Source: Peptostreptococcus sp. | GTDB taxonomy: Bacteria; Bacillota; Clostridia; Peptostreptococcales; Peptostreptococcaceae | DNA length: 24,000 nt | Assembly (NCBI RefSeq): GCF_036639115.1 | Contig: NZ_JAVWJH010000002.1 | Span: forward strand, 165,079 to 189,078 | Direction of reading: 5' to 3' | Part shown: in pieces, positions 3,178-22,053 of the stretch | Layout of the letters: each line of letters starts with the position of its first letter | Numbering within the stretch: the first letter of the stretch is position 1 | Made by a program: the position numbers and the translations under genes | The notes under the pieces: model-generated | Database searches by the model: none | What the model saw: only the letters and a program-made list of their open reading frames with translations | What the model was told of the DNA's origin: nothing

Positions 3178-3264
3178 AATACATATGTGGTATTATGCTT
3201 ATTGAGATTTAATTATTTTCATCATGATTTTAAAAAAAATAATACTATGAAAGTAGGTGTATTA

Positions 3265-3966
3265 ATGATGAGTATTGATAAAAATTTAGATAAGGTAAGA
3301 CATAACATAGAGGATGTAGCCCAAGAATGTGGCAGAGATTTTGAAGAAATATTATTGCTTGGAGTTACCAAAACTGTTGATACAGACATGGTAGAAGAGG
3401 CAATTAAGTATGGAATCACCGATGTTGGAGAAAATAAGCCCCAAGAACTAAGTAGAAAATATGAAGTTATTGGAGATAGAGTAAAGTGGCATCAAATAGG
3501 TTCCCTACAGACCAATAAAGTAAAATACATCATAGATAAAGTTGAGCTCATACATTCTTTAGATAGGATGAGTCTTGCAAAAGAAATTCAAAAAAGAGCA
3601 GAGCAACATGATGTTACTGTAAAGTGTTTGGTACAAGTGAATATTTCAAAAGAAGAGTCAAAACATGGTATATATAGAGAAGATGTAGAGAACTTCATTA
3701 GAAATTGTTCTGCAGAATATGATAGAATTAAAATTACGGGATTGATGACAATGGCACCATTTGATGCTGAGAAAGAAGAAGTAAGATCAGTATTCAGAGG
3801 TCTAAAGAAATTATCAGAAGATATTTCGAAATTAAAGCTTCCAAATGTCGAAATGAAGGATCTTTCAATGGGAATGAGTCAAGATTTTGATATAGCTATT
3901 GAAGAAGGAGCAACGATTGTCAGAATAGGTACATCCATTTTTGGAAAGAGAAGTTATAACAAATAA
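3265..3966 (+). CDS. yggS: YggS/YlmE-family pyridoxal-phosphate homeostasis protein
   Basis: Motifs LLGVTKT (PLP lysine), WHQIGSLQTNKVK and LSMGMSQDF..AIEEGATIVRIGTSIFG match the YggS/YlmE family. Start placed at ATG 3265 (AGGTG 5 nt upstream; ATG 3268 equally possible). The ORF-track GTG at 3187 adds an implausible hydrophobic/basic leader. Confidence 0.88.
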   Translation: MMSIDKNLDKVRHNIEDVAQECGRDFEEILLLGVTKTVDTDMVEEAIKYGITDVGENKPQELSRKYEVIGDRVKWHQIGSLQTNKVKYIIDKVELIHSLDRMSLAKEIQKRAEQHDVTVKCLVQVNISKEESKHGIYREDVENFIRNCSAEYDRIKITGLMTMAPFDAEKEEVRSVFRGLKKLSEDISKLKLPNVEMKDLSMGMSQDFDIAIEEGATIVRIGTSIFGKRSYNK

Positions 3967-3995
3967 AATATACAGACATTGCTAGGAGGTAAATT

Positions 3996-4517
3996 ATGGC
4001 AGGTTTTAAAGATAAAATGGGAAAATTAAAAGACTGGATGATAACAGACGATGAAAACTCTGATGAAGAATACGATTCATATGAAGATGAATATGAAGAT
4101 AGCTTTGAAGAATATGATGACAACTTTGAAGAGTATGAAGAAGATGCAGATACTACACCTACATCGTCATCATCATCATATGCAGCTGGTATAGCTGCAA
4201 GTAGAGTAGCAGATTATCAGGCTCACAATCAGATGAAGGTTGTAATCGTTGAGCCAAAGGTATATGATGACGCAGCTACAATAGCTGACCATCTAAAACT
4301 TAGAAAAACTGTAATAGTAAATCTTGAAAATATGACACAGCAAAATACTAAAAAGTCTATATTTGACTTTATGAATGGAGCTGTATACGTATTGGATGGT
4401 AGCATACAGAGAGTTTCAAAATCTATATTTATTCTTGCACCGAAAAATGTTGATGTCGATGCTAGTATAAAGAAAGAACTTGAAAGTAAAGCTATTTTTC
4501 CTTGGCAAAGTAGATAA
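3996..4517 (+). CDS. sepF: Cell division protein SepF (YlmF)
   Basis: 173 aa. N-terminal amphipathic MAGFKDKMGKLKDWM resembles the SepF membrane-targeting helix. The C-terminal domain (KVVIVEPKVYDDAATIADHLKLRKTVIVNLENM...VLDGSIQRVSKSIFILAP) is the conserved SepF FtsZ-binding fold. AGGAGG SD. Position between ylmE and ylmG. Confidence 0.92.
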   Translation: MAGFKDKMGKLKDWMITDDENSDEEYDSYEDEYEDSFEEYDDNFEEYEEDADTTPTSSSSSYAAGIAASRVADYQAHNQMKVVIVEPKVYDDAATIADHLKLRKTVIVNLENMTQQNTKKSIFDFMNGAVYVLDGSIQRVSKSIFILAPKNVDVDASIKKELESKAIFPWQSR

Positions 4518-4537
4518 TTTAAAGCGAGGATAAGAAT

Positions 4538-4795
4538 ATGGGAATGGTGAAAGTTGCACTGCAGTATCTGATAAATATTATAGTTTGGGTGATTATCGCA
4601 AAAGCTATACTTTCTTGGTTTCCTGGAGCACAGAGTAGTAAGTTATACACTATGTTGGACCAATTTACAGAACCTGTAGAGGCTCCTATAAGAAAGATTT
4701 TTGGAAAATATATGTCGGGACCACTCGATTTTACCCCTATGATAGCGATTATAGTTCTTATGATAATAGGAAACCTTATATCGAAATTTTTATAG
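4538..4795 (+). CDS. YggT/YlmG-family small membrane protein
   Basis: 85 aa with two TM segments. Sequence (AKAILSWFPG...FTEPVEAPIRKI) and position after sepF fit YggT/YlmG. GAGGA SD 7 nt upstream. Confidence 0.85.
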   Translation: MGMVKVALQYLINIIVWVIIAKAILSWFPGAQSSKLYTMLDQFTEPVEAPIRKIFGKYMSGPLDFTPMIAIIVLMIIGNLISKFL

Positions 4796-4802
4796 GTGAA
4801 TT

Positions 4803-5588
4803 ATGGATAAATTAAAGCTTACAAATCACATTAAAGATGATGATTTAAGAATTAAGATGTATAGAATTGTTGATATCTGTAATTTAGTGCTTAAAAACTA
4901 TGAGTATCGACAGACAGAGTTTTTAAATCCATTTGAAATTAAAAACGCGGTCGCAATAGTTAACTCTCAACAAGATCTAGCTTGTAGGGTTGATGGTGGA
5001 TATGATGGTGCAGAAAGATCTGTATTATCAATTTTTCCATATTACCAAGAAGTGGAAGATTCTGATGTTGAGATTAGTTTTTTACAGATTGATGGAAATT
5101 TTAAATTTTCATCTGTTTCACATCGAGATTATCTAGGTTCTATATTGGGTCTAGGTATAAAAAGAGAAAAAATTGGAGATATACTAGTGCATGAAGATTA
5201 CTGTCAGGTAATAGTAGAAAGTGAAATATCAGATTATATAGTATATAATTTAGATAAAGTTGCAAATAATAGAGTAAATCTAAAAAAAATAGACAGAAGT
5301 GATATAATAAGATCAAGTCAAGCTTTTGATGAGAGATCACTAACTGTATCTTCTCTTAGATTAGACAATATTATATCTGCAGTTTTTAAGCTGTCTAGGC
5401 AAGAGGCGACAAAGCTAATAGATGTAGGATTTGTTTCAGTAAATTATGAGAAAATCAACAAACATTCAAGTTTAGTCGATGGAGAGTCGGTAATCTCAGT
5501 CAGAAAAAAAGGAAAGTTTATTTTGAGTGAAGTAGGAGATACTACAAGAAAAGGCAAAATCAAAATAAAAACAAAAATATTCGTATAG
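4803..5588 (+). CDS. ylmH: YlmH-like RNA-binding (S4-domain) protein
   Basis: 261 aa. HRDYLGSILGLGIKREKIGDI motif and a C-terminal S4-like segment (LRLDNIISAVFKLSRQEATKLI) typical of YlmH. AGGTGA SD. dcw-distal synteny. Confidence 0.85.
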   Translation: MDKLKLTNHIKDDDLRIKMYRIVDICNLVLKNYEYRQTEFLNPFEIKNAVAIVNSQQDLACRVDGGYDGAERSVLSIFPYYQEVEDSDVEISFLQIDGNFKFSSVSHRDYLGSILGLGIKREKIGDILVHEDYCQVIVESEISDYIVYNLDKVANNRVNLKKIDRSDIIRSSQAFDERSLTVSSLRLDNIISAVFKLSRQEATKLIDVGFVSVNYEKINKHSSLVDGESVISVRKKGKFILSEVGDTTRKGKIKIKTKIFV

Positions 5589-5600
5589 GAAGTGAGATAA

Positions 5601-6245
5601 ATGATTACACCAGAAGAAATAAGCAATAAGGAATTTAAAAAGGGATTTAGAGGATATAGTGAAGAAGAAGTAGATGTATTTCTAGATCAGTTAAAAGATG
5701 ACTATGAAGTTATTGTAAAGGAAAATGAAGCCGTAAAAGAAAAGTTACTTATGTATCAAGAACAAGTAAGTAAGTATTCTAGCATAGAAGAAACATTGAA
5801 GGAAACTTTGATTACAGCCCAAAGTGCTGCAGAAGACACGACAAGTGCTGCTAATAAAAAGGCAAGAATAATAGTTCAAGAAGCTGAGCTTCAGTCAAAG
5901 CAAATAATTGACAGTGCAAACAATAAGGTAGTAGAAATAAGAAATGAATATGAATCTCTTATAAAAGAATTTAAGGTATTTAGAAATAAATTTAAATCTT
6001 TACTAGAAGATGAAATGGAAAATGTTGATGATATCTTTAGTGATATAACAAATGAAAATGATGGCTTTAATCAAGTGAATTCACCAACAACTTTTGAAGG
6101 AACAGGTACTATGAGAATGTCAGTTCTAGAAGATGTTCAGGAAGAAGAAGAAAATAACATCGGTATTCAGACAGTTGAAGATATACAAGAAACTAAGCCA
6201 GAAGATGAGTCGGGTTCTCCTGAAGATATATTTAAAATAAAGTAG
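5601..6245 (+). CDS. divIVA: Septum-site determining/polar scaffold protein DivIVA
   Basis: N-terminus MITPEEISNKEFKKGFRGYSEEEVDVFLDQL is the canonical DivIVA lipid-binding domain. It is followed by coiled-coil sequence and an acidic tail. Sits directly upstream of ileS, as in Bacillus. Confidence 0.92.
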   Translation: MITPEEISNKEFKKGFRGYSEEEVDVFLDQLKDDYEVIVKENEAVKEKLLMYQEQVSKYSSIEETLKETLITAQSAAEDTTSAANKKARIIVQEAELQSKQIIDSANNKVVEIRNEYESLIKEFKVFRNKFKSLLEDEMENVDDIFSDITNENDGFNQVNSPTTFEGTGTMRMSVLEDVQEEEENNIGIQTVEDIQETKPEDESGSPEDIFKIK

Positions 6246-6361: not shown

Positions 6362-6626
6362 AAATAGATTTATAAAAGCTATGACGAAGAGAGTAGTGTA
6401 TATATACTTTTTAGCGAGTCGGGTTTGGTGTGAGCCGATAAAGGATTATATATGTGAAGATCACTTCTGAGCAGAAGGCTGAAAGTCAATCTGACAATTA
6501 AGCTAACCGGGTGGTTTCGATATAGACCTTTGAGAGTTCAGGTACAAGCTTTATCTGTATTTGAGAATTAGGGTGGTAACGCGATTTTAGCTCGTCCCTT
6601 GCATTGCAAGGTGACGGGTTTTTTTA
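6362..6626 (+). promoter_or_regulatory. T-box riboswitch leader, isoleucine-specific (specifier ATC)
   Basis: Ordered T-box elements: GA/K-turn-like ATGACGAAGAGAGTAG (6381-6396), AG bulge AGCGAG (6413-6418), distal loop GGTGTGA (6427-6433), specifier context GAAG-ATC-A with ATC at 6460-6462, conserved T-box AATTAGGGTGGTAACGCG (6566-6583), then a terminator hairpin. ATC matches the downstream ileS. Confidence 0.9.
6591..6625 (+). terminator. Intrinsic terminator of the T-box leader (attenuator)
   Basis: CTCGTCCCTTGC-ATT-GCAAGGTGACGGG hairpin with one bulged residue, followed by T7 (6619-6625). Its 5' arm is adjacent to the T-box sequence, so an alternative antiterminator is possible. Confidence 0.85.
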
Positions 6627-6691: not shown

Positions 6692-9600
6692 ATGGGAAAA
6701 GAATTAGTATTCGATAAGCTTTATGATGGAAGTATATCTCAAGCTGAAGAACAAACTTTAAAAACTTGGAGAGAAGATAATATTCTTGAAAAAGTTCTTG
6801 AAAAAGGAAAAAATGATCCTACTTTCGTATTTTATGAAGGACCACCAACAGCAAATGGTAATCCTGGAATACATCATGTTATATCTAGAACATTAAAGGA
6901 TTGGGTCTGTAGATACAAAACAATGAGTGGCTACAAGGTGCCAAGAAAAGCAGGTTGGGATACACATGGACTACCTGTAGAATTACAGGTTGAAAAGCAG
7001 CTTGGACTATCAGACAAAAAGGCTATAGAGGAATATGGTATAGCAGAATTTTGTGACAAGTGTAGAGAGTCTGTATTTTCATATGAGAAAGAATGGAGAC
7101 AAATGACTGAAAGAATGGCTTACTCAGTAGATTTGGATGATCCATATATAACATTAGACAATGACTACATAGAAACTCTATGGTGGATATTAGATAAATT
7201 TAATGAAGAAAATATGCTATATGAGGGACATAAGATACTTCCATATTGCCCTAGATGTGGTACTGGACTGGCTTCACATGAAGTAGCTCAGGGATATAAA
7301 GAAGTAAAGACAAATACTCTTGTAGCTAAATTTAAAAAGAAAAATACTGAAAATGAGTATTTTTTAGCATGGACAACTACTCCTTGGACACTACCTTCAA
7401 ATGTTGCGTTAACTGTTAATCCTGAAATAGATTATGTTAAGGTTAGAAAGGGAGAGGAAGTATATTATCTAGCTAAGGCTTTGGCTGACAAACACCTAGG
7501 TCAAGGTGAATATGAAGTCTTAGAAACTATGAAGGGTAAAGATCTTGAATATCAAGAGTACGAACAACTAATGCCATTTGTAGATGTTGATAAGAAAGCT
7601 TTCTTTATCACTTGTGGTGATTATGTAACAGTGACTGATGGTACTGGTATAGTTCACTCAGCACCAGCATTTGGTGAAGATGACTATGCAATGGGAAGAA
7701 AATATTCACTTCCATTTGTACAACCAGTAGATGATGAAGGAAAGTTTACAGCTACACCATGGCAAGGAAAATTTGTAATGGAAGAAGGCCTAGATGTAGA
7801 AATAATCAAATGGCTTGCTAAAGAAAATAAGTTATTCTCAAAGGAAAAAATGGTTCATAACTATCCACATTGCTGGAGATGTTCTACTCCATTGGTATAC
7901 TATGCAAAGCCAGGCTGGTATATAGAGATGACAAAACTAAAAGATCAATTAATAGAAAATAATAACGGAGTAAATTGGTACCCAGAGTTTGTAGGTCAGG
8001 GAAGATTTGGAAATTGGCTAGAAGAACTAAAAGACTGGGCGATATCTAGAACAAGATACTGGGGAACTCCATTGCCTGTATGGAAGTGTGAATGTGGAAC
8101 TAAGAGCACAGTTGGATCTAGACAAGAATTGGTTGACAGAGCAATAGAAGATGTAAACCCAGAAACAATAGATCTACATAGACCGTACGTAGATGATATA
8201 CACCTAAAGTGCCCAGATTGTGGGAAGCCAATGACTAGAGTAACAGAGGTAATAGACTGTTGGTTTGACTCTGGATCAATGCCTTTTGCACAATGGCATT
8301 ACCCGTTTGAAAATAAGGAAAACTTTGATCAGTTATTCCCAGCTGACTATATATGTGAAGGTATAGATCAAACTAGAGGATGGTTCTACTCATTGCTAGC
8401 TATATCAACATTTGTAACAGGAAAAGCACCTTACAAAAATGTATTGGTAACTGATCTTGTGCTAGATAAAAATGGAAAGAAGATGTCAAAATCTAAGGGT
8501 AATACAATAAATCCATTTGAAATGTTTGATAAATATGGAGCAGATGCCTTAAGATGGTACTTACTATACGTATCACCACCTTGGACACCAATAAAGTTTG
8601 ATGAAGAAGGATTGAAAGAGATAATCTCTAAGTTTATAGGAACTTTAAAGAATACTTATAACTTCTTTACTTTATATGCCAACACAGATAATTTAAATCC
8701 AAAAGATTTCTTTGTGGATTACAAGGAAAGACCAGAACTAGATAGATGGATTCTTTCTAAGTTTAATAACTTGAAGAAGGAAATAGAAGAAAATCTTGAA
8801 ATATTTGAAGTAAACAAGTCAATAAGAAGATTGACTGAATTTTTAAATGATGACTTATCTAACTGGTATATAAGAAGAAGCAGAAGAAGATTCTGGGGAA
8901 CTGAATTAACAGAAGATAAGATGGCGGTATATAATACTACTTATGAAATATTAACTGAGTATTGTAAGATGATAGCTCCGTTTGCTCCTTACCTGTCAGA
9001 GGAAATGTACAGAAAGTTAACTGGAGAATATTCAGTTCACTGTGCAGATTACCCAAGATATGATGAGAGATTAATAGATGAACGTCTAGAAGAAAAAATG
9101 GACCTTACAAAGAACCTTGTAACTCTTGGTAGAGCTGCTAGAGAAAGCTCAAAAATAAAAGTAAGACAGCCTATATCAGAGGTACTTATAGATGGTAAAT
9201 ATGAGAGTATAATATCTGATCTTGTCGGCCTTATAAAAGAAGAGCTAAATGTAAAGGAAGTAAAATTTGTTAAAGATTTAAGTGAATTTATGAACTTTAC
9301 ATTGAAGCCAAACTTCAAGGTATTAGGACCAGTTTTAGGCAAAAATGTCAATAAATTTGGTAAGTTACTTTCAACACTGGATTCCCATGAAGTGGTAGCA
9401 AAGACTGAGTCTGGCGAAAAGGTAAAGGTTGATCTAGATGGTGAAGAATTTGAATTTGGTAAAGAAGAAATATTAGTAAATATAGAATCTAAGCCAGGAT
9501 TTAATGTTGCAATGGAAAATAATCTATTTGTAATATTAGAAACAGTTCTTACTGATGAGCTAATCAATGAGGGACTTGCTAGAGAATTTATATCTAAGGT

Positions 9601-9814
9601 TCAACAGATGAGAAAAGCTAGTGGTTTTGAAGTTTTAGATAATATAAATGTTTACTACAATGGTGACGCTGATATTCAAAGAGCAGTGGAAACATTTGAT
9701 GAGTACATAAAGAATGAAACACTTTCGTTATCTATAAATAAAGTTGACGATGAAAGCCTAGAAATACAAAATCTTAATGATCATGAAACTGGTATAAAGG
9801 TAGAAAAAGCATAA
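6692..9814 (+). CDS. ileS: Isoleucyl-tRNA synthetase, type 2 (long, Thermus/eukaryote-like form)
   Basis: 1040 aa. HIGH-region FYEGPPTANGNPGIHH, KMSKS motif at KKMSKSKGN, editing (CP1) insertion, Cys clusters CPRCG / CWRC / CECG / CPDCG. AAGGAG SD. Preceded by the Ile T-box. Confidence 0.97.
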   Translation: MGKELVFDKLYDGSISQAEEQTLKTWREDNILEKVLEKGKNDPTFVFYEGPPTANGNPGIHHVISRTLKDWVCRYKTMSGYKVPRKAGWDTHGLPVELQVEKQLGLSDKKAIEEYGIAEFCDKCRESVFSYEKEWRQMTERMAYSVDLDDPYITLDNDYIETLWWILDKFNEENMLYEGHKILPYCPRCGTGLASHEVAQGYKEVKTNTLVAKFKKKNTENEYFLAWTTTPWTLPSNVALTVNPEIDYVKVRKGEEVYYLAKALADKHLGQGEYEVLETMKGKDLEYQEYEQLMPFVDVDKKAFFITCGDYVTVTDGTGIVHSAPAFGEDDYAMGRKYSLPFVQPVDDEGKFTATPWQGKFVMEEGLDVEIIKWLAKENKLFSKEKMVHNYPHCWRCSTPLVYYAKPGWYIEMTKLKDQLIENNNGVNWYPEFVGQGRFGNWLEELKDWAISRTRYWGTPLPVWKCECGTKSTVGSRQELVDRAIEDVNPETIDLHRPYVDDIHLKCPDCGKPMTRVTEVIDCWFDSGSMPFAQWHYPFENKENFDQLFPADYICEGIDQTRGWFYSLLAISTFVTGKAPYKNVLVTDLVLDKNGKKMSKSKGNTINPFEMFDKYGADALRWYLLYVSPPWTPIKFDEEGLKEIISKFIGTLKNTYNFFTLYANTDNLNPKDFFVDYKERPELDRWILSKFNNLKKEIEENLEIFEVNKSIRRLTEFLNDDLSNWYIRRSRRRFWGTELTEDKMAVYNTTYEILTEYCKMIAPFAPYLSEEMYRKLTGEYSVHCADYPRYDERLIDERLEEKMDLTKNLVTLGRAARESSKIKVRQPISEVLIDGKYESIISDLVGLIKEELNVKEVKFVKDLSEFMNFTLKPNFKVLGPVLGKNVNKFGKLLSTLDSHEVVAKTESGEKVKVDLDGEEFEFGKEEILVNIESKPGFNVAMENNLFVILETVLTDELINEGLAREFISKVQQMRKASGFEVLDNINVYYNGDADIQRAVETFDEYIKNETLSLSINKVDDESLEIQNLNDHETGIKVEKA

Positions 9815-15660: not shown

Positions 15661-15673
15661 TTTGGGGGAAGTT

Positions 15674-17359
15674 ATGATTTACGAATTATATATGAAAAAC
15701 TGTGCCTTAGTGGATGAGTTAAGGGTAAACTTTGGAAAGGGTTTAAATATACTCACTGGAGAAACAGGATCTGGAAAGTCTATAATTTTAGAAGCACTAA
15801 ATCTTTGTCTAGGAGGAAAGTATGATAGAACATTTCTTAGAAGGGGATCTCAATTGGGAGAAGTCGAAACAGTCCTATTTGTTGAAAATGAAAATTTCAT
15901 AAAACAGTTAAGAAACTTGGATATAGAAGTAGATGAAGATAATTTGGTAGTTGTTTCAAGAAGACTTTTCTCAGATGGCAAAAGCACAACGAAAATAAAT
16001 GGGAAAAATATAAAAGTCTCAGACCTGAAAAAAGTAATGTCATTAGTGGTTGATATGCATGGCCAACATCAAAATCAAGCGCTTTATAGTAAAGAAAATC
16101 ACCTAGAATTTTTTGACTTATATGGCAAGAGTAAGGTGAAAGAGAGACTAGAAGAATATAAAAAAGAGTACAAAGAATATAATAATATACAAAAGCAAAT
16201 ATTAAAACTCAATGACAATAAATCTGAGATGGAAGTTCAGCGCGAGAGAGATCTCTTAAAGTTTCAGATAAATGAAATTGAAGTAGCAAATTTAAGTAAT
16301 GAGGAATATGAAGATTTAAAATTAAAAAAAGAAGTATTTGCAAATAGTGAAAAAATATTTAATTCACTAAATGAAGCCTATACACTGCTACATTCAGGAC
16401 AGTTTAACTCAGAAGAACAAGTAGGTAAAGCTTCCAATGCTATAGCTAATGTAGCAAAGTATGATAAACTTCTAGAGGAAATAGAAGTATCTACAAACAA
16501 TGTACTTTATGAACTAGAAGATCTTTCGGGAAACATTAGAAGTTATCTTGATAATATAGACTTCGAACCATACTTACTAAATGAAGTACAAGAAAAATTA
16601 GAAGTAATTAATAGCTTGAGAAGAAAGTATGGAGATACGATAGAAGATGTTTTAGACTATTGTAGCAAAATAAAGGCAAATCTCGATGATATAGATAATA
16701 GAGAAGAAAAAAACAATGAGTTACAATCAAGTTTGTTAAAAAAAGAAAAAGAACTTGCAATTAAAGCACAAGTACTTTCGGATGATAGAAAGAGGGTTGC
16801 AAGTGAGCTAGAAAAGGAGCTTTTAGACGAGTTATCTAGCTTGAATATGAAAAATACAAAATTTAAGGTTGATTTCAAAAAAATAGAGTATAATGAAAAC
16901 GGAAATGATGATGTCGAATTTTTGGTATCATTTAATCTAGGTGAAGAGATGAAGCCACTATATAAGGTGGCTTCTGGTGGAGAAATGTCTAGATTTATGT
17001 TAGCATTTAAATCGATATTATCTGACGTTGATAAAATAGATTCATTGATTTTTGATGAAATAGATACAGGAATAAGTGGAAGAGCAGCACAGACCGTTGG
17101 AGAAAAATTATCTAGAATATCCAAGGAGAAACAGCTTATATGTATTACGCATCTACCACAAATTGCTTCATTTGCAGATGAACATTTCTACATAGAAAAG
17201 AATGTAGAAAACGACAGAACCTATACATCTATTGAAAAGCTGAACAGAGATTCAAAAAAAAATGAGATTGCAAGATTGATATCTGGCATGAGAATAACAG
17301 AGAAAACAATAGAACATGCTGATGAAATGTTAGATATTGCTGATGAAATAAAAAAATAA
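15674..17359 (+). CDS. recN: DNA repair protein RecN
   Basis: Walker A GETGSGKSI, long coiled-coil middle, signature SGGEMSRFMLAFK, Walker B LIFDEIDTGISG. ATG 15674 (GGGGGA SD) preferred over TTG 15662. Confidence 0.95.
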   Translation: MIYELYMKNCALVDELRVNFGKGLNILTGETGSGKSIILEALNLCLGGKYDRTFLRRGSQLGEVETVLFVENENFIKQLRNLDIEVDEDNLVVVSRRLFSDGKSTTKINGKNIKVSDLKKVMSLVVDMHGQHQNQALYSKENHLEFFDLYGKSKVKERLEEYKKEYKEYNNIQKQILKLNDNKSEMEVQRERDLLKFQINEIEVANLSNEEYEDLKLKKEVFANSEKIFNSLNEAYTLLHSGQFNSEEQVGKASNAIANVAKYDKLLEEIEVSTNNVLYELEDLSGNIRSYLDNIDFEPYLLNEVQEKLEVINSLRRKYGDTIEDVLDYCSKIKANLDDIDNREEKNNELQSSLLKKEKELAIKAQVLSDDRKRVASELEKELLDELSSLNMKNTKFKVDFKKIEYNENGNDDVEFLVSFNLGEEMKPLYKVASGGEMSRFMLAFKSILSDVDKIDSLIFDEIDTGISGRAAQTVGEKLSRISKEKQLICITHLPQIASFADEHFYIEKNVENDRTYTSIEKLNRDSKKNEIARLISGMRITEKTIEHADEMLDIADEIKK

Positions 17360-17395: not shown

Positions 17396-18517
17396 ATGCG
17401 AGTAGAGGCGAAGTTAAGAAAAGATAGAAAAACAAAAAAGCTCGCAAAGAGGATAATGGCTGGTGAAATAGCTGTTATTAACCACGTGGATATAGATGAA
17501 GTGGCTGCAAAATCTTTGGTAGAAGCTAAAATAAAGCTAGTCATCAATGCTGCAGAATCTATAAGTGGTAGATATCCAAATGCAGGACCTAATATATTGG
17601 TTAAAGAAAACATACTTATAATTGATAATGTTGGGGAAGAAACTTTTGATTCTCTTGAAGAAGGGGATATAATTGTCGTTGAAGAAGGCAAAATATACAG
17701 GGACAATGAACTTTTGGGCGAAGGTGAGGTAATGACGGCAGATGTAGTAGCTCAAAAAACTAAACATGCCTATGAAAATATAGGTGCTGAGTTAGATAGG
17801 TTTATAGACAATACTATAGAGTATGCAAGAAAAGAAAAGGGAATGATTTTGGGAGATGTAGAAATTCCTAAAATGAAGACAAATTATGATGGAAAGCATG
17901 TCTTAGTAGTAGTAAGAGGTCATAATTATAAGGCTGACTTACAAGCAATAATATCGTATATAGAAGAAGTAAAGCCTGTACTTGTAGGAGTTGATGGAGG
18001 GGCTGATGCGCTTTTAGAATCTGGATATAGGCCAGATGTAATTGTAGGAGATATGGACAGTGTGTCCGATGAAGCTCTTAAATCGGCGAAGGAAATTGTT
18101 GTACATGCCTATACTAACGGTAAGGCACCAGGCTTAAAAAGAGTAGAGGATTTGGGTCTAGAAGCAGTAATATTTGCATCTCCAGGAACTAGTGAGGATA
18201 TTGCTATGCTGGCAGCATATGAATACAATGCCAAGCTTATAGTTGCTCTTGGAACACACTCCAATATGATCGACTTTTTAGAAAAAGGTAGAAAAGGAAT
18301 GGCATCTACATTTTTAGTAAGGTTGAAAATTGGGGCAAGACTAATAGACGCTAGAGGAGTAAGTATGCTTTACAAGAGTAGATTGAAGCTAAAATATATT
18401 GTGGCTTTAATTGTAACCGCACTTTTTCCAGTATTAATTCTAATATCTCTATCTCCAAAAGTGCAGACTTTTATGCAGCTTGTAGAGATAAAGATGAGAC
18501 TATTGTTGGGAATGTAG
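17396..18517 (+). CDS. steA: SteA-like protein (thiamine-pyrophosphokinase-like domain, C-terminal membrane anchor)
   Basis: 373 aa. Central GVDGGADALLESGYRPDVIVGDMDSV mirrors the TPK catalytic-domain motif (GxDGGA...PD..xGDxDS). C-terminal hydrophobic helix YIVALIVTALFPVLILISLS. GGAGG SD. Lies right after recN, as in the actinobacterial steA locus (recalled, not searched). Confidence 0.75.
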   Translation: MRVEAKLRKDRKTKKLAKRIMAGEIAVINHVDIDEVAAKSLVEAKIKLVINAAESISGRYPNAGPNILVKENILIIDNVGEETFDSLEEGDIIVVEEGKIYRDNELLGEGEVMTADVVAQKTKHAYENIGAELDRFIDNTIEYARKEKGMILGDVEIPKMKTNYDGKHVLVVVRGHNYKADLQAIISYIEEVKPVLVGVDGGADALLESGYRPDVIVGDMDSVSDEALKSAKEIVVHAYTNGKAPGLKRVEDLGLEAVIFASPGTSEDIAMLAAYEYNAKLIVALGTHSNMIDFLEKGRKGMASTFLVRLKIGARLIDARGVSMLYKSRLKLKYIVALIVTALFPVLILISLSPKVQTFMQLVEIKMRLLLGM

Positions 18518-18574
18518 GATGTTTATCAAACAAACATCTATATATAAATAATTAAAAACAGGAAGGTTGATGAA

Positions 18575-19441
18575 ATGCATATTAATTTTAAATATTTTAT
18601 TGTCTCAATTGGATCTATATTTTTGGCTTTGGGAATAGGTATCTTAGTAGGATCAAGTCTTGGAAATAATGAGACTATTCAAAAGCAAAATGAAGCAATT
18701 GTAAAAGATATTGATGAGCAATTCAATGAATTAAAAACAAAGGACGAACAACTAAGTGAAGAGAATAGTTCTTTAAAGGAAAATATGGGTAAGTATAAAA
18801 AGTATATCGAATCCAATGAAGCTCTATTGACAGCAGGTAAGTTAACAGGAAAGCAAGTAGGAATAATTTCTTTTAGTGAAAAAGATTCTTCGGAAAATTT
18901 AGATTCTGTAATAGCTAATGCGGGTGGAAACGTAGCTTTTGATATAGTTATTAATGAATCATTATTTGAAAAGGGAAGCGCACAAAAGATTAATGAAAAA
19001 CTACAGACAAATATATCTAAAGACTCAGAGTTAATAGACCTTGTTTCAGATGCTATTAAAGAATCAGATTCAAATGGAAGATTAAATGTTCTTTCAGAGT
19101 TGGGTTATGTAAAGGTAGAAAAATATACAAATCAGTTTGATGCAGTAAATAATATAGTAGTATTTAACAATCCAGCCACAAAGATGAAAAATAAGGTAGC
19201 CACACTTGAAAAACCAGTAATAGAAAGTTTAAAAAGTGAAAAACCAGTATTAGTTGTTCAAAACTCTTCTTCAAATAAGGAAAGTCTTAAAGAATTATCA
19301 AAACTAAGAGTAGCTACTATAAATAATATTGATCAATCTATGGGGCATATATCATTAATAACATGTTTGACAAATGATAAAATAATAGGTGATTTTGGAA
19401 AGACTGATGATAATATGGTTACGATACCAGTGACTAAATAA
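18575..19441 (+). CDS. MctB/SteB-family bitopic membrane protein (databases often label this 'copper transporter')
   Basis: 288 aa. N-terminal signal-anchor FKYFIVSIGSIFLALGIGILVGSSL resembles the MctB (Rv1698) N-terminus as I recall it. It is followed by a coiled-coil segment (QKQNEAIVKDIDEQFNELKTKDEQLSEENSSLKENMGKYKKY) and an extracytoplasmic domain. GGAAGG SD. Follows steA. Confidence 0.7.
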   Translation: MHINFKYFIVSIGSIFLALGIGILVGSSLGNNETIQKQNEAIVKDIDEQFNELKTKDEQLSEENSSLKENMGKYKKYIESNEALLTAGKLTGKQVGIISFSEKDSSENLDSVIANAGGNVAFDIVINESLFEKGSAQKINEKLQTNISKDSELIDLVSDAIKESDSNGRLNVLSELGYVKVEKYTNQFDAVNNIVVFNNPATKMKNKVATLEKPVIESLKSEKPVLVVQNSSSNKESLKELSKLRVATINNIDQSMGHISLITCLTNDKIIGDFGKTDDNMVTIPVTK

Positions 19442-19452
19442 TGGAGGAAAAG

Positions 19453-20142
19453 ATGTTTACTAGTGTAATAATACCAGCATATAATGAAGCTGGAAGAATA
19501 AAAGACACCTTGGATCACATAGTCGACATCGATATAATAGATGAAATATTAGTAGTCGATGACGGTTCAAAAGACGATACGGCAAAGGTTTTAGAAGATT
19601 ATAAAAATAGTAAGGTGAAGTATTGGGTACAAAACCCTAATCAAGGAAAAGGAAAAGCTCTTGAAAAGGGTCTTGAAATGCTAGATAAGGATAGTAATAT
19701 AATAGTATTTTTGGATGCTGATATAGGAAAAACATCATCAGAAGTTGTAAAGATTATACAACCTGTAATTGATGGAAAATGTGATGTTGCCATAGCAAAG
19801 TTTAGACCAGCCAAGAAAAAGGGTGGAATGGGATTTGTTAAAAGACTTGCTAGAGATTCTGTATATGAATTAACGGGTGTGAAACTAGACTCAACGCTGT
19901 CAGGTCAAAGAGCTTTTAAAAGAGAAGTAATAGAAAAGTTTGATTCAATACCTGATGGATACGGAGTAGAGGTAGGTATGACAGTTGACATATTGAAGTG
20001 GAACTACACAATAAAAGAGTATATAGTTGATATGACTCACAATGAAACAGGAAGGGACCTAAGTGGATTTATTCATAGAGGTAAACAGTATTTACATATT
20101 AAAAAGATAGTAAAACAGAAAAAACTAGAATGGAGGAGATAA
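19453..20142 (+). CDS. Soluble GT-A fold glycosyltransferase, GpgS-like (GT2/GT81-like)
   Basis: N-terminus FTSVIIPAYNEAGRI, VVDDGSKDDT, GKGKALEKG, DxD motif FLDADI, then GGMGFV..SGQRAF..DGYGVEVGM. No TM segments. ATG 19453 (GGAGG 5 nt upstream) preferred; ATG 19441 overlapping the previous stop is also possible. Confidence 0.8.
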   Translation: MFTSVIIPAYNEAGRIKDTLDHIVDIDIIDEILVVDDGSKDDTAKVLEDYKNSKVKYWVQNPNQGKGKALEKGLEMLDKDSNIIVFLDADIGKTSSEVVKIIQPVIDGKCDVAIAKFRPAKKKGGMGFVKRLARDSVYELTGVKLDSTLSGQRAFKREVIEKFDSIPDGYGVEVGMTVDILKWNYTIKEYIVDMTHNETGRDLSGFIHRGKQYLHIKKIVKQKKLEWRR

Positions 20143-20144
20143 CT

Positions 20145-20972
20145 TTGTACACTTACTTAATGACTTTAATGTTATTTTTTGTAGGAGTAGCAGTAACATT
20201 GTTATCAATACCATTTTTATCTAAAATGTTAAAATCAAATGGAATGATAAGGCCAAACTACAGAGGAGAAAAAATTCCTGTAAGTATGGGAATTTGTTTT
20301 ATACCAGCACTCATAATAAACTCAGCAATATTATTGTATTGTAATGTTGAAGTGACAAGGCTTTTTAGGGTATATATCTTATTATTTGGAGTAATGTCAA
20401 TGTGTTTTGCAGGTATAATAGATGATAGTATAGGAAATAGAGATGTAACAGGTTTAAAAGGTCACTTTAAATCTTTACTTAATGGGAAGTTAACTACTGG
20501 AGGATTCAAAGCACTTTTGGGTGGATTAGTTGGACTGGTAATAACCGTTTCAATATCAAAGTCTATTTCCCATATTATAGTAGGAACTTTAGTAATAGCA
20601 CTTTCTACTAATCTTATGAACCTTTTGGATTTAAGACCAGGTAGAGCGATTAAGGTTTATCTGTTATTATCTATCATAATATTTATATTTAGTCCAGTGT
20701 TTGAAAAAGAGTTAATGATGCTGATTGTACCAGCTGTTATAGCATATTTCTATTATGATTTAAAGGCAATGTCTATGATGGGTGATGCTGGATCAAATGT
20801 ATTAGGGATATCTATAGGTATATTTATGGTTACATCATTTGACCTAAAGGTACAAATATTTTGGTTAGCTATTTTAGTGATAGTACACCTTATAGGGGAA
20901 AAATTCTCTATAACAAAACTTATAGAGAATAACCATATATTAAACTATATTGATAAACTTGGAAGGAATTAA
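20145..20972 (+). CDS. Divergent MraY/WecA-like (glycosyltransferase family 4) polytopic membrane protein
   Basis: About 275 aa with 8 or more hydrophobic segments. Motifs NYRGEKIPVSMGI, AGIIDDSIGNRD, STNLMNLLDLRPGRA and MMGDAGSNVLG parallel the cytoplasmic-loop motifs of polyprenyl-phosphate sugar-1-phosphate transferases. TTG 20145 (GGAGGAG 6 nt upstream) or ATG 20130. Start region overlaps or abuts the GT2 stop. Confidence 0.75.
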   Translation: MYTYLMTLMLFFVGVAVTLLSIPFLSKMLKSNGMIRPNYRGEKIPVSMGICFIPALIINSAILLYCNVEVTRLFRVYILLFGVMSMCFAGIIDDSIGNRDVTGLKGHFKSLLNGKLTTGGFKALLGGLVGLVITVSISKSISHIIVGTLVIALSTNLMNLLDLRPGRAIKVYLLLSIIIFIFSPVFEKELMMLIVPAVIAYFYYDLKAMSMMGDAGSNVLGISIGIFMVTSFDLKVQIFWLAILVIVHLIGEKFSITKLIENNHILNYIDKLGRN

Positions 20973-20973
20973 C

Positions 20974-22053
20974 ATGATTAGTAAAAAATTGGGAATAGTA
21001 AATAAAATCAAAAGTGAGAATGAATCGATACAAGATTTATTGGTTGAAATTGATGGTAATATTGAAAGAGCATATAATTATATTCAATTGACAGGAAAAG
21101 CAAAGATAGGTGATAATCTAGTACTTAATACTACAGCTGTTGAACTTAGTTTGGGAACGGGTGGATTTCACTTTGTAATACTAAATATTGATAATCCGGA
21201 GTCTGAACTTTCAGATGGTGGGCATATAATGAAACTGAGATATACCCCTATGCAGATAAAGGTTGATTCTGTGGAAGAGCAAGATAGTCAATATCATGAT
21301 ATATTCAATGATTTTGTATGTTTGGAAAGGTTACCTGTAGCCGTTGGAGCACTACATAGCATTATTCCACCTTTTGCAGCGACTTTTAAGAAAAATTGTC
21401 CAGAAAAAAAATTGGTATATATAATGACTGATGGTGCAGCATTACCGATAGCTTTTAGTAAAAATGTCGAAAACCTAAAGAAAAAAGGTTTGATAGACGC
21501 TACTATTACTTATGGAAATGCATTTGGCGGAGATTATGAATGTGTAAATATATACACAGCTCTTATCACTGCAAAAGCTATTTGTAAGGCAGATTGCGTA
21601 ATTGTAGCAATGGGACCAGGTATTGCAGGTACAGGTACAAAATATGGGTTTAGTGGTATAGATCAAGGGATGATAATAGATGCTGTGGAAAAGCTAAATG
21701 GAGAATCCTATATAATACCAAGAATTAGCTTTGCAGATTTAAGACCAAGACATATAGGTATATCTCATCATTCAATAACCATTTTGAGTGAAATAACAAG
21801 TAAAGCAAGTAATCTTGTCATAAATTCTGGCTATGATGAATCAAAATTGAAAATAATAAAAGATCAAATACTTTGTAACAGCATTGCAGAAAAACATAAA
21901 GTATTCTTTACAGAGTACGAATCTACAAAAGATGATTTAGATAAGTTTGACCTTAAGGTTAAGAGTATGGGCAGAGGATTTGACGAAGATAAGGAATTTT
22001 TTATTGCAGCATCAACAGTTGCTAATGAAATTTCTAAAAAAATAAATGATTAA
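20974..22053 (+). CDS. Conserved protein of unknown function (DUF3866-like by size and context)
   Basis: About 359-aa soluble ORF. ATG 20974 (GGAAGGA SD) starts 2 nt after the previous stop. N-terminal beta-rich part (LNTTAVELSLGTGGFHFV) and a Rossmann-like part (LVYIMTDGAALP...VIVAMGPGIAGTGTKYGFSG). Coding is clear; the DUF3866 name is my recollection, not a search result. Confidence 0.7.
   Translation: MISKKLGIVNKIKSENESIQDLLVEIDGNIERAYNYIQLTGKAKIGDNLVLNTTAVELSLGTGGFHFVILNIDNPESELSDGGHIMKLRYTPMQIKVDSVEEQDSQYHDIFNDFVCLERLPVAVGALHSIIPPFAATFKKNCPEKKLVYIMTDGAALPIAFSKNVENLKKKGLIDATITYGNAFGGDYECVNIYTALITAKAICKADCVIVAMGPGIAGTGTKYGFSGIDQGMIIDAVEKLNGESYIIPRISFADLRPRHIGISHHSITILSEITSKASNLVINSGYDESKLKIIKDQILCNSIAEKHKVFFTEYESTKDDLDKFDLKVKSMGRGFDEDKEFFIAASTVANEISKKIND

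Follow-up and report, generated by a model that had tools for sequence, protein, structure and literature searches.

SteA and SteB are encoded together with a PNPT-like membrane protein and a glycosyltransferase in Peptostreptococcus

Why would SteA and SteB, which in mycobacteria form a transmembrane complex positioning RipA (Carloni et al. 2026, PMC12977500), be encoded in one tight row with proteins for sugar transfer? This question is raised by a 24,000-nucleotide stretch of a Peptostreptococcus sp. genome (contig NZ_JAVWJH010000002.1, positions 165,079 to 189,078 of the forward strand; hereafter, the window), in which recN is followed by five genes encoding SteA, the MctB-family protein SteB, a soluble glycosyltransferase of family GT2, a membrane protein resembling the PNPT superfamily and a DUF3866 protein. 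The original prediction, made from the DNA alone, had read these genes as a native unit linked to division or cell separation. Having analyzed the gene structure, protein families, conservation and motif states of the set, and taking essentiality and morphology from the literature, we give an even chance to the reading that a SteAB system is genetically coupled here to a two-enzyme, membrane-associated lipid-linked glycan pathway. The lipid-linked product, the coupling through SteA and any role of DUF3866 are what we infer from these data.

Conservation of the block in Clostridia and basal Actinomycetota

We scanned one genome per species, which gave at least 593 genomes with DUF3866, and annotated the best 80 loci, all seeded on DUF3866, with profiles derived from the window proteins. 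A SteA-(SteB)-GT2-PNPT block was found upstream of DUF3866 in 55 of the 80 loci. All five genes were contiguous in 30 loci, belonging to Peptostreptococcaceae, Alkaliphilus, Natronincolaceae, Tissierellia, Thermoanaerobacterium, Mahella and others, and another 7 harbored a contiguous block without a clear SteB. In 18 loci, intervening genes separated the block from DUF3866; the inserted gene was mostly an M20 peptidase and at times ptb-buk-vor genes or an SNF transporter. As for the rest, 14 loci carried DUF3866 without a block in the preceding 5 kb or more, 4 were cut by a contig end, 6 were too short to judge, and one (L017) had the block and no scorable DUF3866 open reading frame (ORF). The median gaps across the loci were 7 nt for SteB/GT2, -1 nt for GT2/PNPT and 5 nt for PNPT/DUF3866. 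The gene-neighborhood analysis that the original prediction had proposed, once run, thus placed the five families together far beyond the lineage of the window, with the block occurring in many Clostridia.

The same five-gene set is present in Clostridioides difficile R20291 as cdr20291_1053-1057, encoding proteins of 373, 291, 230, 274 and 355 amino acids (aa) (PMC12548448). The window proteins, of 373, 288, 229 to 233, 275 to 280 and 359 aa, match these in families and order. Furthermore, a Clostridioides-type locus in our set (L088) had a layout identical to that of cdr20291_1053-1057, and the Peptostreptococcaceae loci L001 to L008 agreed with it. Transposon sequencing (Tn-seq) recovered 0 insertions in the 130, 117, 76 and 111 TA sites of 1053 to 1056 and 1 to 2 in the 122 sites of 1057; the flanking genes spoIVB, spo0A, nudF and xerD tolerate insertions (PMC12548448). 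The result for 1057 is not explicable by polarity, because nudF is dispensable. Upon knockdown of 1053 to 1056 by CRISPR interference (CRISPRi), a strong viability defect was reported, and the cells were short, swollen, phase-bright and chaining; the effect of depleting PS-II-pathway genes or PBP2/RodA is described in identical terms (PMC12548448). B. subtilis has no orthologs of cdr20291_1053-1057 (PMC12548448). This published phenotype backs the link to division or the envelope that had been made from the DNA.

The accompanying claim that the set was undescribed held only in part: it has been published as an essential cluster and clostridial steAB has been noted, but a biochemical function was not found in the searched literature. 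The essentiality paper (J Bacteriol 2025, PMC12548448) lists 1053-1057 in no assigned pathway and does not identify 1053 and 1054 as SteA and SteB, and Carloni et al. 2026, who note that some Clostridia have steAB 3' of spo0A, propose a role in sporulation (PMC12977500). In the same literature, we found no functional study of the cluster beyond the CRISPRi and Tn-seq paper and no description of the cluster as SteAB plus a PNPT/GT2 pair, of its conservation in Clostridia and basal Actinomycetota within a glycan-pathway context, of a contrast between intact and degenerate SteA signatures, of SteB-less variants with a soluble SteA or of a DUF3866-M20-NUDIX linkage.

The PNPT-like family reaches basal Actinomycetota, where SteAB, the PNPT-like protein and the partner families lie in one region. 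In Ca. Aquicultor, the order is recN, an M23-like membrane protein, SteA, SteB, GT2, GT1, PMT_2 (GT-C), a 740-aa membrane protein, PNPT-like, pyrG, M20, DUF3866, NUDIX and xerD, and that of a second metagenome-assembled genome (MAG) of Actinomycetota is nearly identical. Acidimicrobiia have tlyA-nadK-recN-(PNPT-like)-SteA-SteB-MurJ-(GT1)-~750-aa protein-PMT_2-(PNPT-like)-pyrG. GT2 is absent from these Acidimicrobiia clusters, and three of their SteAB-PNPT loci carry no DUF3866 as far as the loci extend, one of them going from pyrG directly to NUDIX. These loci bear out the predicted co-localization beyond Firmicutes, and the order tlyA-(nadK)-recN-steA-steB, which the original prediction had cited, could be seen in them directly. 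The PNPT-like gene shifts position within the actinobacterial clusters yet remains with SteAB, and it is the most constant SteAB partner across the two phyla. Judged by its protein families, the actinobacterial cluster looks like a complete lipid-linked glycan pathway with initiation, elongation, a flippase and extracytoplasmic transferases. The M. tuberculosis order, which we take to be steA-steB-pyrG-nudix-xerD, reads as a reduced form of this cluster.

Two further proteins were observed in the actinobacterial regions. In the recN/steA gap, basal Actinomycetota encode a membrane-anchored protein with a subthreshold Peptidase_M23 match (21 to 23 bits, cutoff 28.7; L082 1045-1911, L083 2717-3580), which could be a hydrolase or activator partner. 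Additionally, a protein of 740 to 790 aa accompanies the SteAB-PNPT cluster (L082 7782-10004, L083 7703-9937, L081 14681-16957, L086 6196-8427, L046 3787-6084 and, on the - strand, L027 4005-6386). It has a signal or transmembrane (TM) segment, an ectodomain of ~370 aa and about 10 TM helices and belongs to no Pfam family; the ectodomain has an alkaline-phosphatase/sulfatase-like look, with faint Pfam hits only.

DUF3866 has other neighbors as well. A NUDIX gene, absent from the window, was located directly 3' of DUF3866 in 51 of the 80 loci, and the two are fused in the proteins P0121 and P0257 (562 and 555 aa). In about 20 loci, some of which have DUF3866 away from the SteA block, the gene directly 5' of DUF3866 encodes an M20/M42-type peptidase (L032-L040, L044, L046, L049, L061, L066-L068, L073, L076, L078, L082, L083 and L085). 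The module is therefore best described as 4+1, with DUF3866 tied to the M20 peptidase and NUDIX as strongly as to the SteA block. Of the five-gene unit originally proposed, four genes hold together, whereas DUF3866 is bound less tightly, as seen in the 14 loci where it stands apart, the 18 where it is separated and the NUDIX fusions. In Armatimonadota, M20/M42 is also found directly 5' of DUF3866 and is there preceded by a SIS-domain gene.

All of this could reflect an inherited neighborhood, in which SteAB regulates a wall hydrolase, GT2 and the PNPT-like protein make an unrelated glycopolymer and DUF3866 goes with NUDIX/deoB/pnp/pdp or with M20. The wider order is indeed conserved as a whole (dxs-tlyA-(nadK)-argR-recN-spoIVB-spo0A, the block, then DUF3866-NUDIX-spoIIM-xerD-deoB-pnp-pdp-dacB). 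In agreement with such inheritance, the unrelated genes dxs, tlyA and recN are packed equally tightly in the window, DUF3866 stands beside NUDIX-spoIIM-xerD in the 14 loci with no SteA block, and its M20 neighbors and NUDIX fusions, together with the Acidimicrobiia loci that carry SteAB and PNPT without DUF3866, point the same way. Nevertheless, the SteA-(SteB)-GT2-PNPT block is unbroken in 55/55 loci, its PNPT-like gene moves within actinobacterial clusters and still stays beside SteAB, SteA-GT2-PNPT survives the loss of SteB, and in this region it is exactly these five genes that are essential in C. difficile. We thus regard mere inheritance of gene order as unlikely, if by no means far-fetched.

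Protein families and motif states

SteA (17396..18517, + strand) passes the equivalog model NF040608 over its full length (509 bits versus a cutoff of 150, residues 4-370). It matched PF12555 and PF04263, and has a cytoplasmic domain similar to thiamine pyrophosphokinase (TPK) and MptE and one predicted C-terminal TM helix (residues 335-353). The SteA family profile matched the solved SteA structures 9hmy and 9hmz with an E value of 4e-92, and the TPK/MptE-type structures 8sd5 and 3l8m with E values of 5e-7 and 9e-5, respectively. In an alignment of 37 SteA sequences (A4; 33 from Bacillota and 4 from Actinomycetota), all from loci carrying a PNPT-like gene, the motifs GVDGGAD, GDMDS, H237, GTSED, GTH and KGRxGM were invariant (37/37). 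The window SteA has the complete signature, the last motif reading KGRKGM. These motifs align to the archaeal MptE-type pyrophosphokinase signature DGxxxxxLE...PDIIVSDLDG...VVHAHGD and to TPK. In contrast, the signature is degenerate in both solved Mycobacteriales proteins, which have lost different portions of it: 9hmy reads GVGTGAD, GDPDQ, P and SATD, and 9hmz reads GVDGAAD, GNPTG, P and SSTD. The mycobacterial side of this contrast consists of these two sequences only, and their loci are presumably without the transferases. Among the Acidimicrobiia, 102 of 120 SteA proteins retained all five pattern-scored motifs; a homolog search seeded on Acidimicrobiia SteA returned only close relatives.

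Furthermore, five independent MAG lineages (L021, L025, L026, L035 and L042) have no SteB, and their SteA is without the C-terminal TM helix. These loci still have SteA-GT2-PNPT-DUF3866 in a contiguous row, with an intact SteA signature. Besides signaling to SteB, SteA thus seems to have a cytoplasmic task connected with the transferases. C. glutamicum SteA is reported to be stabilized by UDP and GDP and to have a pocket for which carbohydrate binding is predicted (PMC12977500). On a bolder reading, which we find rather unlikely, SteA would be more than a regulator and would itself act as a TPK/MptE-type (pyro)phosphotransferase; with GT2, the altered PNPT protein and DUF3866, it would make up an unrecognized essential envelope glycopolymer pathway, possibly that for the GlcNAc-glycerate 6-6-phosphodiester lipoteichoic acid (LTA) of Peptostreptococcaceae, and the mycobacterial SteAB would be its degenerate remnant.

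SteB (18575..19441, + strand) matched the MctB family PF11382 with an E value of 6.7e-34 (residues 3-279, profile positions 2-300 of 306). Its predicted topology, an N-terminal TM helix (residues 8-26) followed by an extracytoplasmic domain, is that of a bitopic protein. No partner hydrolase for SteB was identified within the window.

The PNPT-like protein (20130..20972, + strand, starting at ATG 20130 or TTG 20145) is polytopic, with at least 7 predicted TM segments. It scored marginally against PF00953 (31.6 bits, cutoff 27), and no NCBIfam model matched it. Searches of the PDB with the single sequence returned nothing, and MraY structures were reached by the family profile only (A2, 53 orthologs; E value of 2e-7 over nearly the whole length). 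Its motifs are DD98-99, N161xxN164xxD167-L-R-P-G-R172 and MGD219xGS. D98, D99 and D219 were invariant in the 53 sequences and align to the DD and GDTGS of MraY. MraY and WecA share NxxNxxDGxDG, the DGxDG stretch being part of the uridine pocket in MraY, and additionally have HHH (MraY) or HIHH (WecA); the catalytic Asp residues of MraY are the counterparts of DD, D167 and D219. The corresponding stretch of the window protein is NLMNLLDLRPGR, in which another residue takes the place of the second Asp and R169, P170 and R172 are invariant, and instead of the HHH or HIHH motif only H253...E257 is retained near the C terminus. The protein is a member of the PNPT superfamily that is neither MraY nor WecA.

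Such divergence could also mean that the PNPT-like protein is no transferase at all and informs SteAB as a membrane sensor or scaffold that recognizes, for instance, undecaprenyl phosphate or a precursor linked to lipid. The invariant DLRPGR in place of DGxDG, the reduction of HHH to H...E, the short length (275 to 280 aa), the marginal Pfam score and the missing NCBIfam match would all be compatible with such a role. Nevertheless, all 53 sequences, which come from two phyla, keep the catalytic Asp residues (DD, D167 and D219), and in Actinomycetota the protein accompanies bona fide glycosyltransferases and a flippase. A mere sensor or scaffold therefore seems quite improbable to us.

The glycosyltransferase (19453..20142, + strand, with an alternative start at ATG 19441) has a GT-A domain (PF00535, E value of 2.3e-24), in which the DxD motif D88-A-D90 is invariant in the ortholog alignment. 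It has no predicted TM helix, just a basic tail that is conserved at the C terminus. Every specific NCBIfam model scored below its cutoff, including the GpgS model NF010496 (70.7 bits, cutoff 262). With the family profile (A3, 47 orthologs), the best PDB match was P. furiosus dolichol-phosphate mannose synthase (DPMS; 5mlz, 1.6e-21, positions 2-191), followed by GpgS (7.5e-19) and then GtrB and ArnC, so that the nearest solved proteins are polyprenyl-phosphate glycosyltransferases and GpgS. The label "GpgS-like retaining" of the original prediction was not established by these scores, DPMS being the slightly better match; it is unproven and names one of two near-equal possibilities suggested by the profiles.

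GpgS forms an alpha-1,2 linkage to 3-phosphoglycerate, and TPK and MptE pyrophosphorylate primary alcohols. The module might accordingly make the Peptostreptococcaceae LTA, the PS-III of C. difficile: GT2 would give alpha-GlcNAc-(1-2)-phosphoglycerate, a primary hydroxyl (that of GlcNAc C6, for instance) would be the target of SteA as a pyrophosphokinase, and the PNPT-like protein would load the phospho-unit onto the lipid carrier. The structure of the polymer is ->P-6)-aGlcNAc-(1-3)-aGlcNAc-[1-2-GroA]-(6-> (PMC13558421). GpgS is among the closest solved relatives of GT2, the SteA signature is intact, and genes for this LTA polymer were not found described in the searched literature. The support is entirely inferential, however, and the module is far more widespread than the single known occurrence of the polymer; moreover, GT2 fails the GpgS cutoff and is absent from the Acidimicrobiia clusters. 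We put little faith in this assignment.

DUF3866 (20974..22053, + strand, starting at ATG 20974) matched PF12982 over profile positions 1-316 of 318 (440.6 bits, E value of 4e-132) and belongs to a family of 425 clusters (50% identity) at E < 1e-30. An alignment-based AlphaFold 2 model (pLDDT 97.4) shows a cytoplasmic protein with an N-terminal beta domain and an alpha/beta domain with a Gly-rich loop; the model from the single sequence (pLDDT 33) was uninformative. In a Foldseek search of the PDB, the best TM-score was 0.34, to generic alpha/beta folds of SIMIBI-type NTPases (SRP/FtsY/MeaB/UreG); sequence and profile searches of the PDB gave no match, and hhalign revealed no relationship to SteA. 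The earlier description as Rossmann-like was thus roughly right, although the high-confidence model has no convincing counterpart in the PDB.

The locus in the window

In the window, der, plsY, gpsA, yggS, sepF, ylmH, divIVA, ileS, xseA, ispA, dxs, tlyA and recN are followed by the five-gene set, a purine nucleoside phosphorylase gene and an mltG-like gene, all on the + strand. The flanking recN (15662..17359, TIGR00634, 537 bits) lies outside the module. The recN/steA junction (36 nt) contains AGGAGG, and the steA/steB junction (57 nt) contains AGGAAGG. At steB/GT2 there is either a 1-nt overlap (ATG 19441) or an 11-nt gap with GGAGG (ATG 19453), and at GT2/PNPT-like either an overlap (ATG 20130) or a 2-nt gap with GGAGGAG (TTG 20145). 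The PNPT-like and DUF3866 genes are 1 nt apart, and DUF3866 is followed by 87 to 109 nt before the purine nucleoside phosphorylase gene. The GC content is uniform (0.29 to 0.36). The terminator scan found no terminator-like site in 14.5-23.2 kb, and the sites from the promoter scan barely exceeded the shuffled background. The five ORFs with their Shine-Dalgarno sites and junctions, the composition matching the surroundings and the missing terminator after recN were all as the original prediction had described them.

Short junctions are usual in this window: dxs and tlyA overlap by 1 nt and tlyA and recN are 1 nt apart, with unrelated functions. Since the genome yields co-direction and tight spacing by default, neither feature by itself argues for a functional unit. 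The case for the five genes as a unit thus stems from their conservation in other genomes and not from their spacing.

The module is flanked by recN and pnp here because spoIVB-spo0A and NUDIX-spoIIM-xerD-deoB, which are missing from the Peptostreptococcus locus, have been lost. Compared to spore-forming relatives (L002-L020 and L088), the window and P. canis (L001) also lack nadK/argR, and the locus of this non-sporulating genus is thus compacted. NCBI lists proteins identical to DUF3866 and SteA for a Peptostreptococcus MAG (MEG0249929.1 and MEG0249933.1, respectively), where the model of MEG0249929.1 starts at the same ATG 20974; the nearest named species is P. russellii, at ~85% identity.

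Other features of the window were noted. Upstream, on the same strand, a division-associated block (3187-6245) consists of yggS-sepF-(small yggT-like ORF, ~4540-4800)-ylmH-divIVA, and a T-box leader (RF00230, 109.7 bits, 6372-6602) precedes ileS (6692-9814). The mltG/YceG-like ORF, of the peptidoglycan strand terminase family, starts at ~22995 and continues past the window end (24000); the Clostridioides locus L088 has a YceG gene at the equivalent relative position.

A tentative model and its relation to known systems

In the model that we favor, an ancient envelope operon of the Gram-positive lineages would be represented in Peptostreptococcus by the window locus. SteA, with its C-terminal anchor, and SteB, with its N-terminal anchor, would form a transmembrane pair; in Mycobacteriales, this pair puts a septal peptidoglycan endopeptidase in position and activates it. 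The pair would be co-transcribed, and is probably translationally coupled, with the PNPT-like protein and GT2. The former may initiate and the latter continue a short glycan on polyprenyl-(pyro)phosphate at the inner membrane face. Through its intact nucleotide pocket, SteA may perform a step of this pathway or read UDP- or GDP-linked substrates, and the supply of an envelope-polymer precursor would thereby be tied to extracellular wall cleavage. DUF3866 is cytoplasmic and probably binds phosphate or a nucleotide, and would be an accessory, looser fifth member.

Several observations weigh against this coupling. The block lies in a deeply conserved core-genome neighborhood, from tlyA-recN to NUDIX-xerD, so that inheritance of gene order, and not shared function, could account for some of the adjacency. 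Tight junctions are the rule throughout the window, and DUF3866 is separable from the block (14 loci apart, 18 with intervening genes). CRISPRi is polar, and the phenotype that the upstream genes have in common therefore does not count as independent evidence. As to the enzymes, GT2 is without the membrane and interface helices of DPMS and GtrB, and the PNPT-like family has swapped DGxDG for an invariant DLRPGR, which may mean an unusual donor or a protein other than a transferase. Finally, we rejected sporulation as the main role and consider a sporulation function of clostridial steAB very improbable: spo0A is immediately 5' of steA in most Clostridia loci, as in the suggestion of PMC12977500, but the window and P. 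canis (L001) retain the module despite the loss of spoIVB-spo0A from the locus, C. difficile requires the cluster in vegetative growth while spo0A and spoIVB are dispensable, and Actinomycetota have the module without spo0A.

In two phyla, SteAB lies within a putative gene set for lipid-linked glycans. Together with the intact SteA signature of the module-associated sequences and the soluble SteA of lineages without SteB, this offers handles on the ligand or reaction of the conserved SteA pocket and on the genes that supply unassigned envelope polymers of Clostridia. Moreover, the five genes, being essential in C. difficile and without orthologs in B. subtilis, are candidate targets for narrow-spectrum antibiotics.

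Among the closest known systems is cdr20291_1053-1057 of C. difficile, which belongs to the same family, Peptostreptococcaceae, and has the same five protein families in the same order and of similar sizes. However, it is located between spo0A and nudF, whereas the set is located between recN and pnp here. With SteAB-RipA of Mycobacteriales (Rv1697/Rv1698; C. glutamicum), the window locus shares an orthologous SteA and an MctB-family SteB with bitopic topologies, encoded by adjacent genes, and the tlyA-nadK-recN context upstream is shared with the Actinomycetota loci. Cells chain upon loss of that system (PMC12977500, PMC6705760), as they do upon knockdown in C. difficile. Unlike the mycobacterial pair, SteAB of the window is encoded in one operon with the PNPT-like protein, GT2 and DUF3866, its SteA signature is full while those of the solved mycobacterial proteins are degenerate, and the clostridial cluster is essential in C. 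difficile.

At the level of SteA, the DGG...D and GDxDS...H signature is that of thiamine pyrophosphokinase and of archaeal MptE-type HPPK. SteA differs from these enzymes in having no thiamine-binding domain but an extra N-terminal domain and a membrane anchor, and the corynebacterial protein binds UDP and GDP, not ATP. The pairing of a PNPT enzyme with a soluble or peripheral glycosyltransferase is reminiscent of lipid-linked glycan initiation modules (WecA plus WbbL, TagO plus TagA and archaeal AglH plus AglJ), and the Actinomycetota clusters add a flippase and a GT-C to it. In contrast to these modules, the PNPT-like family is shorter and carries DLRPGR, and the clostridial operon itself encodes no flippase, polymerase or ligase.

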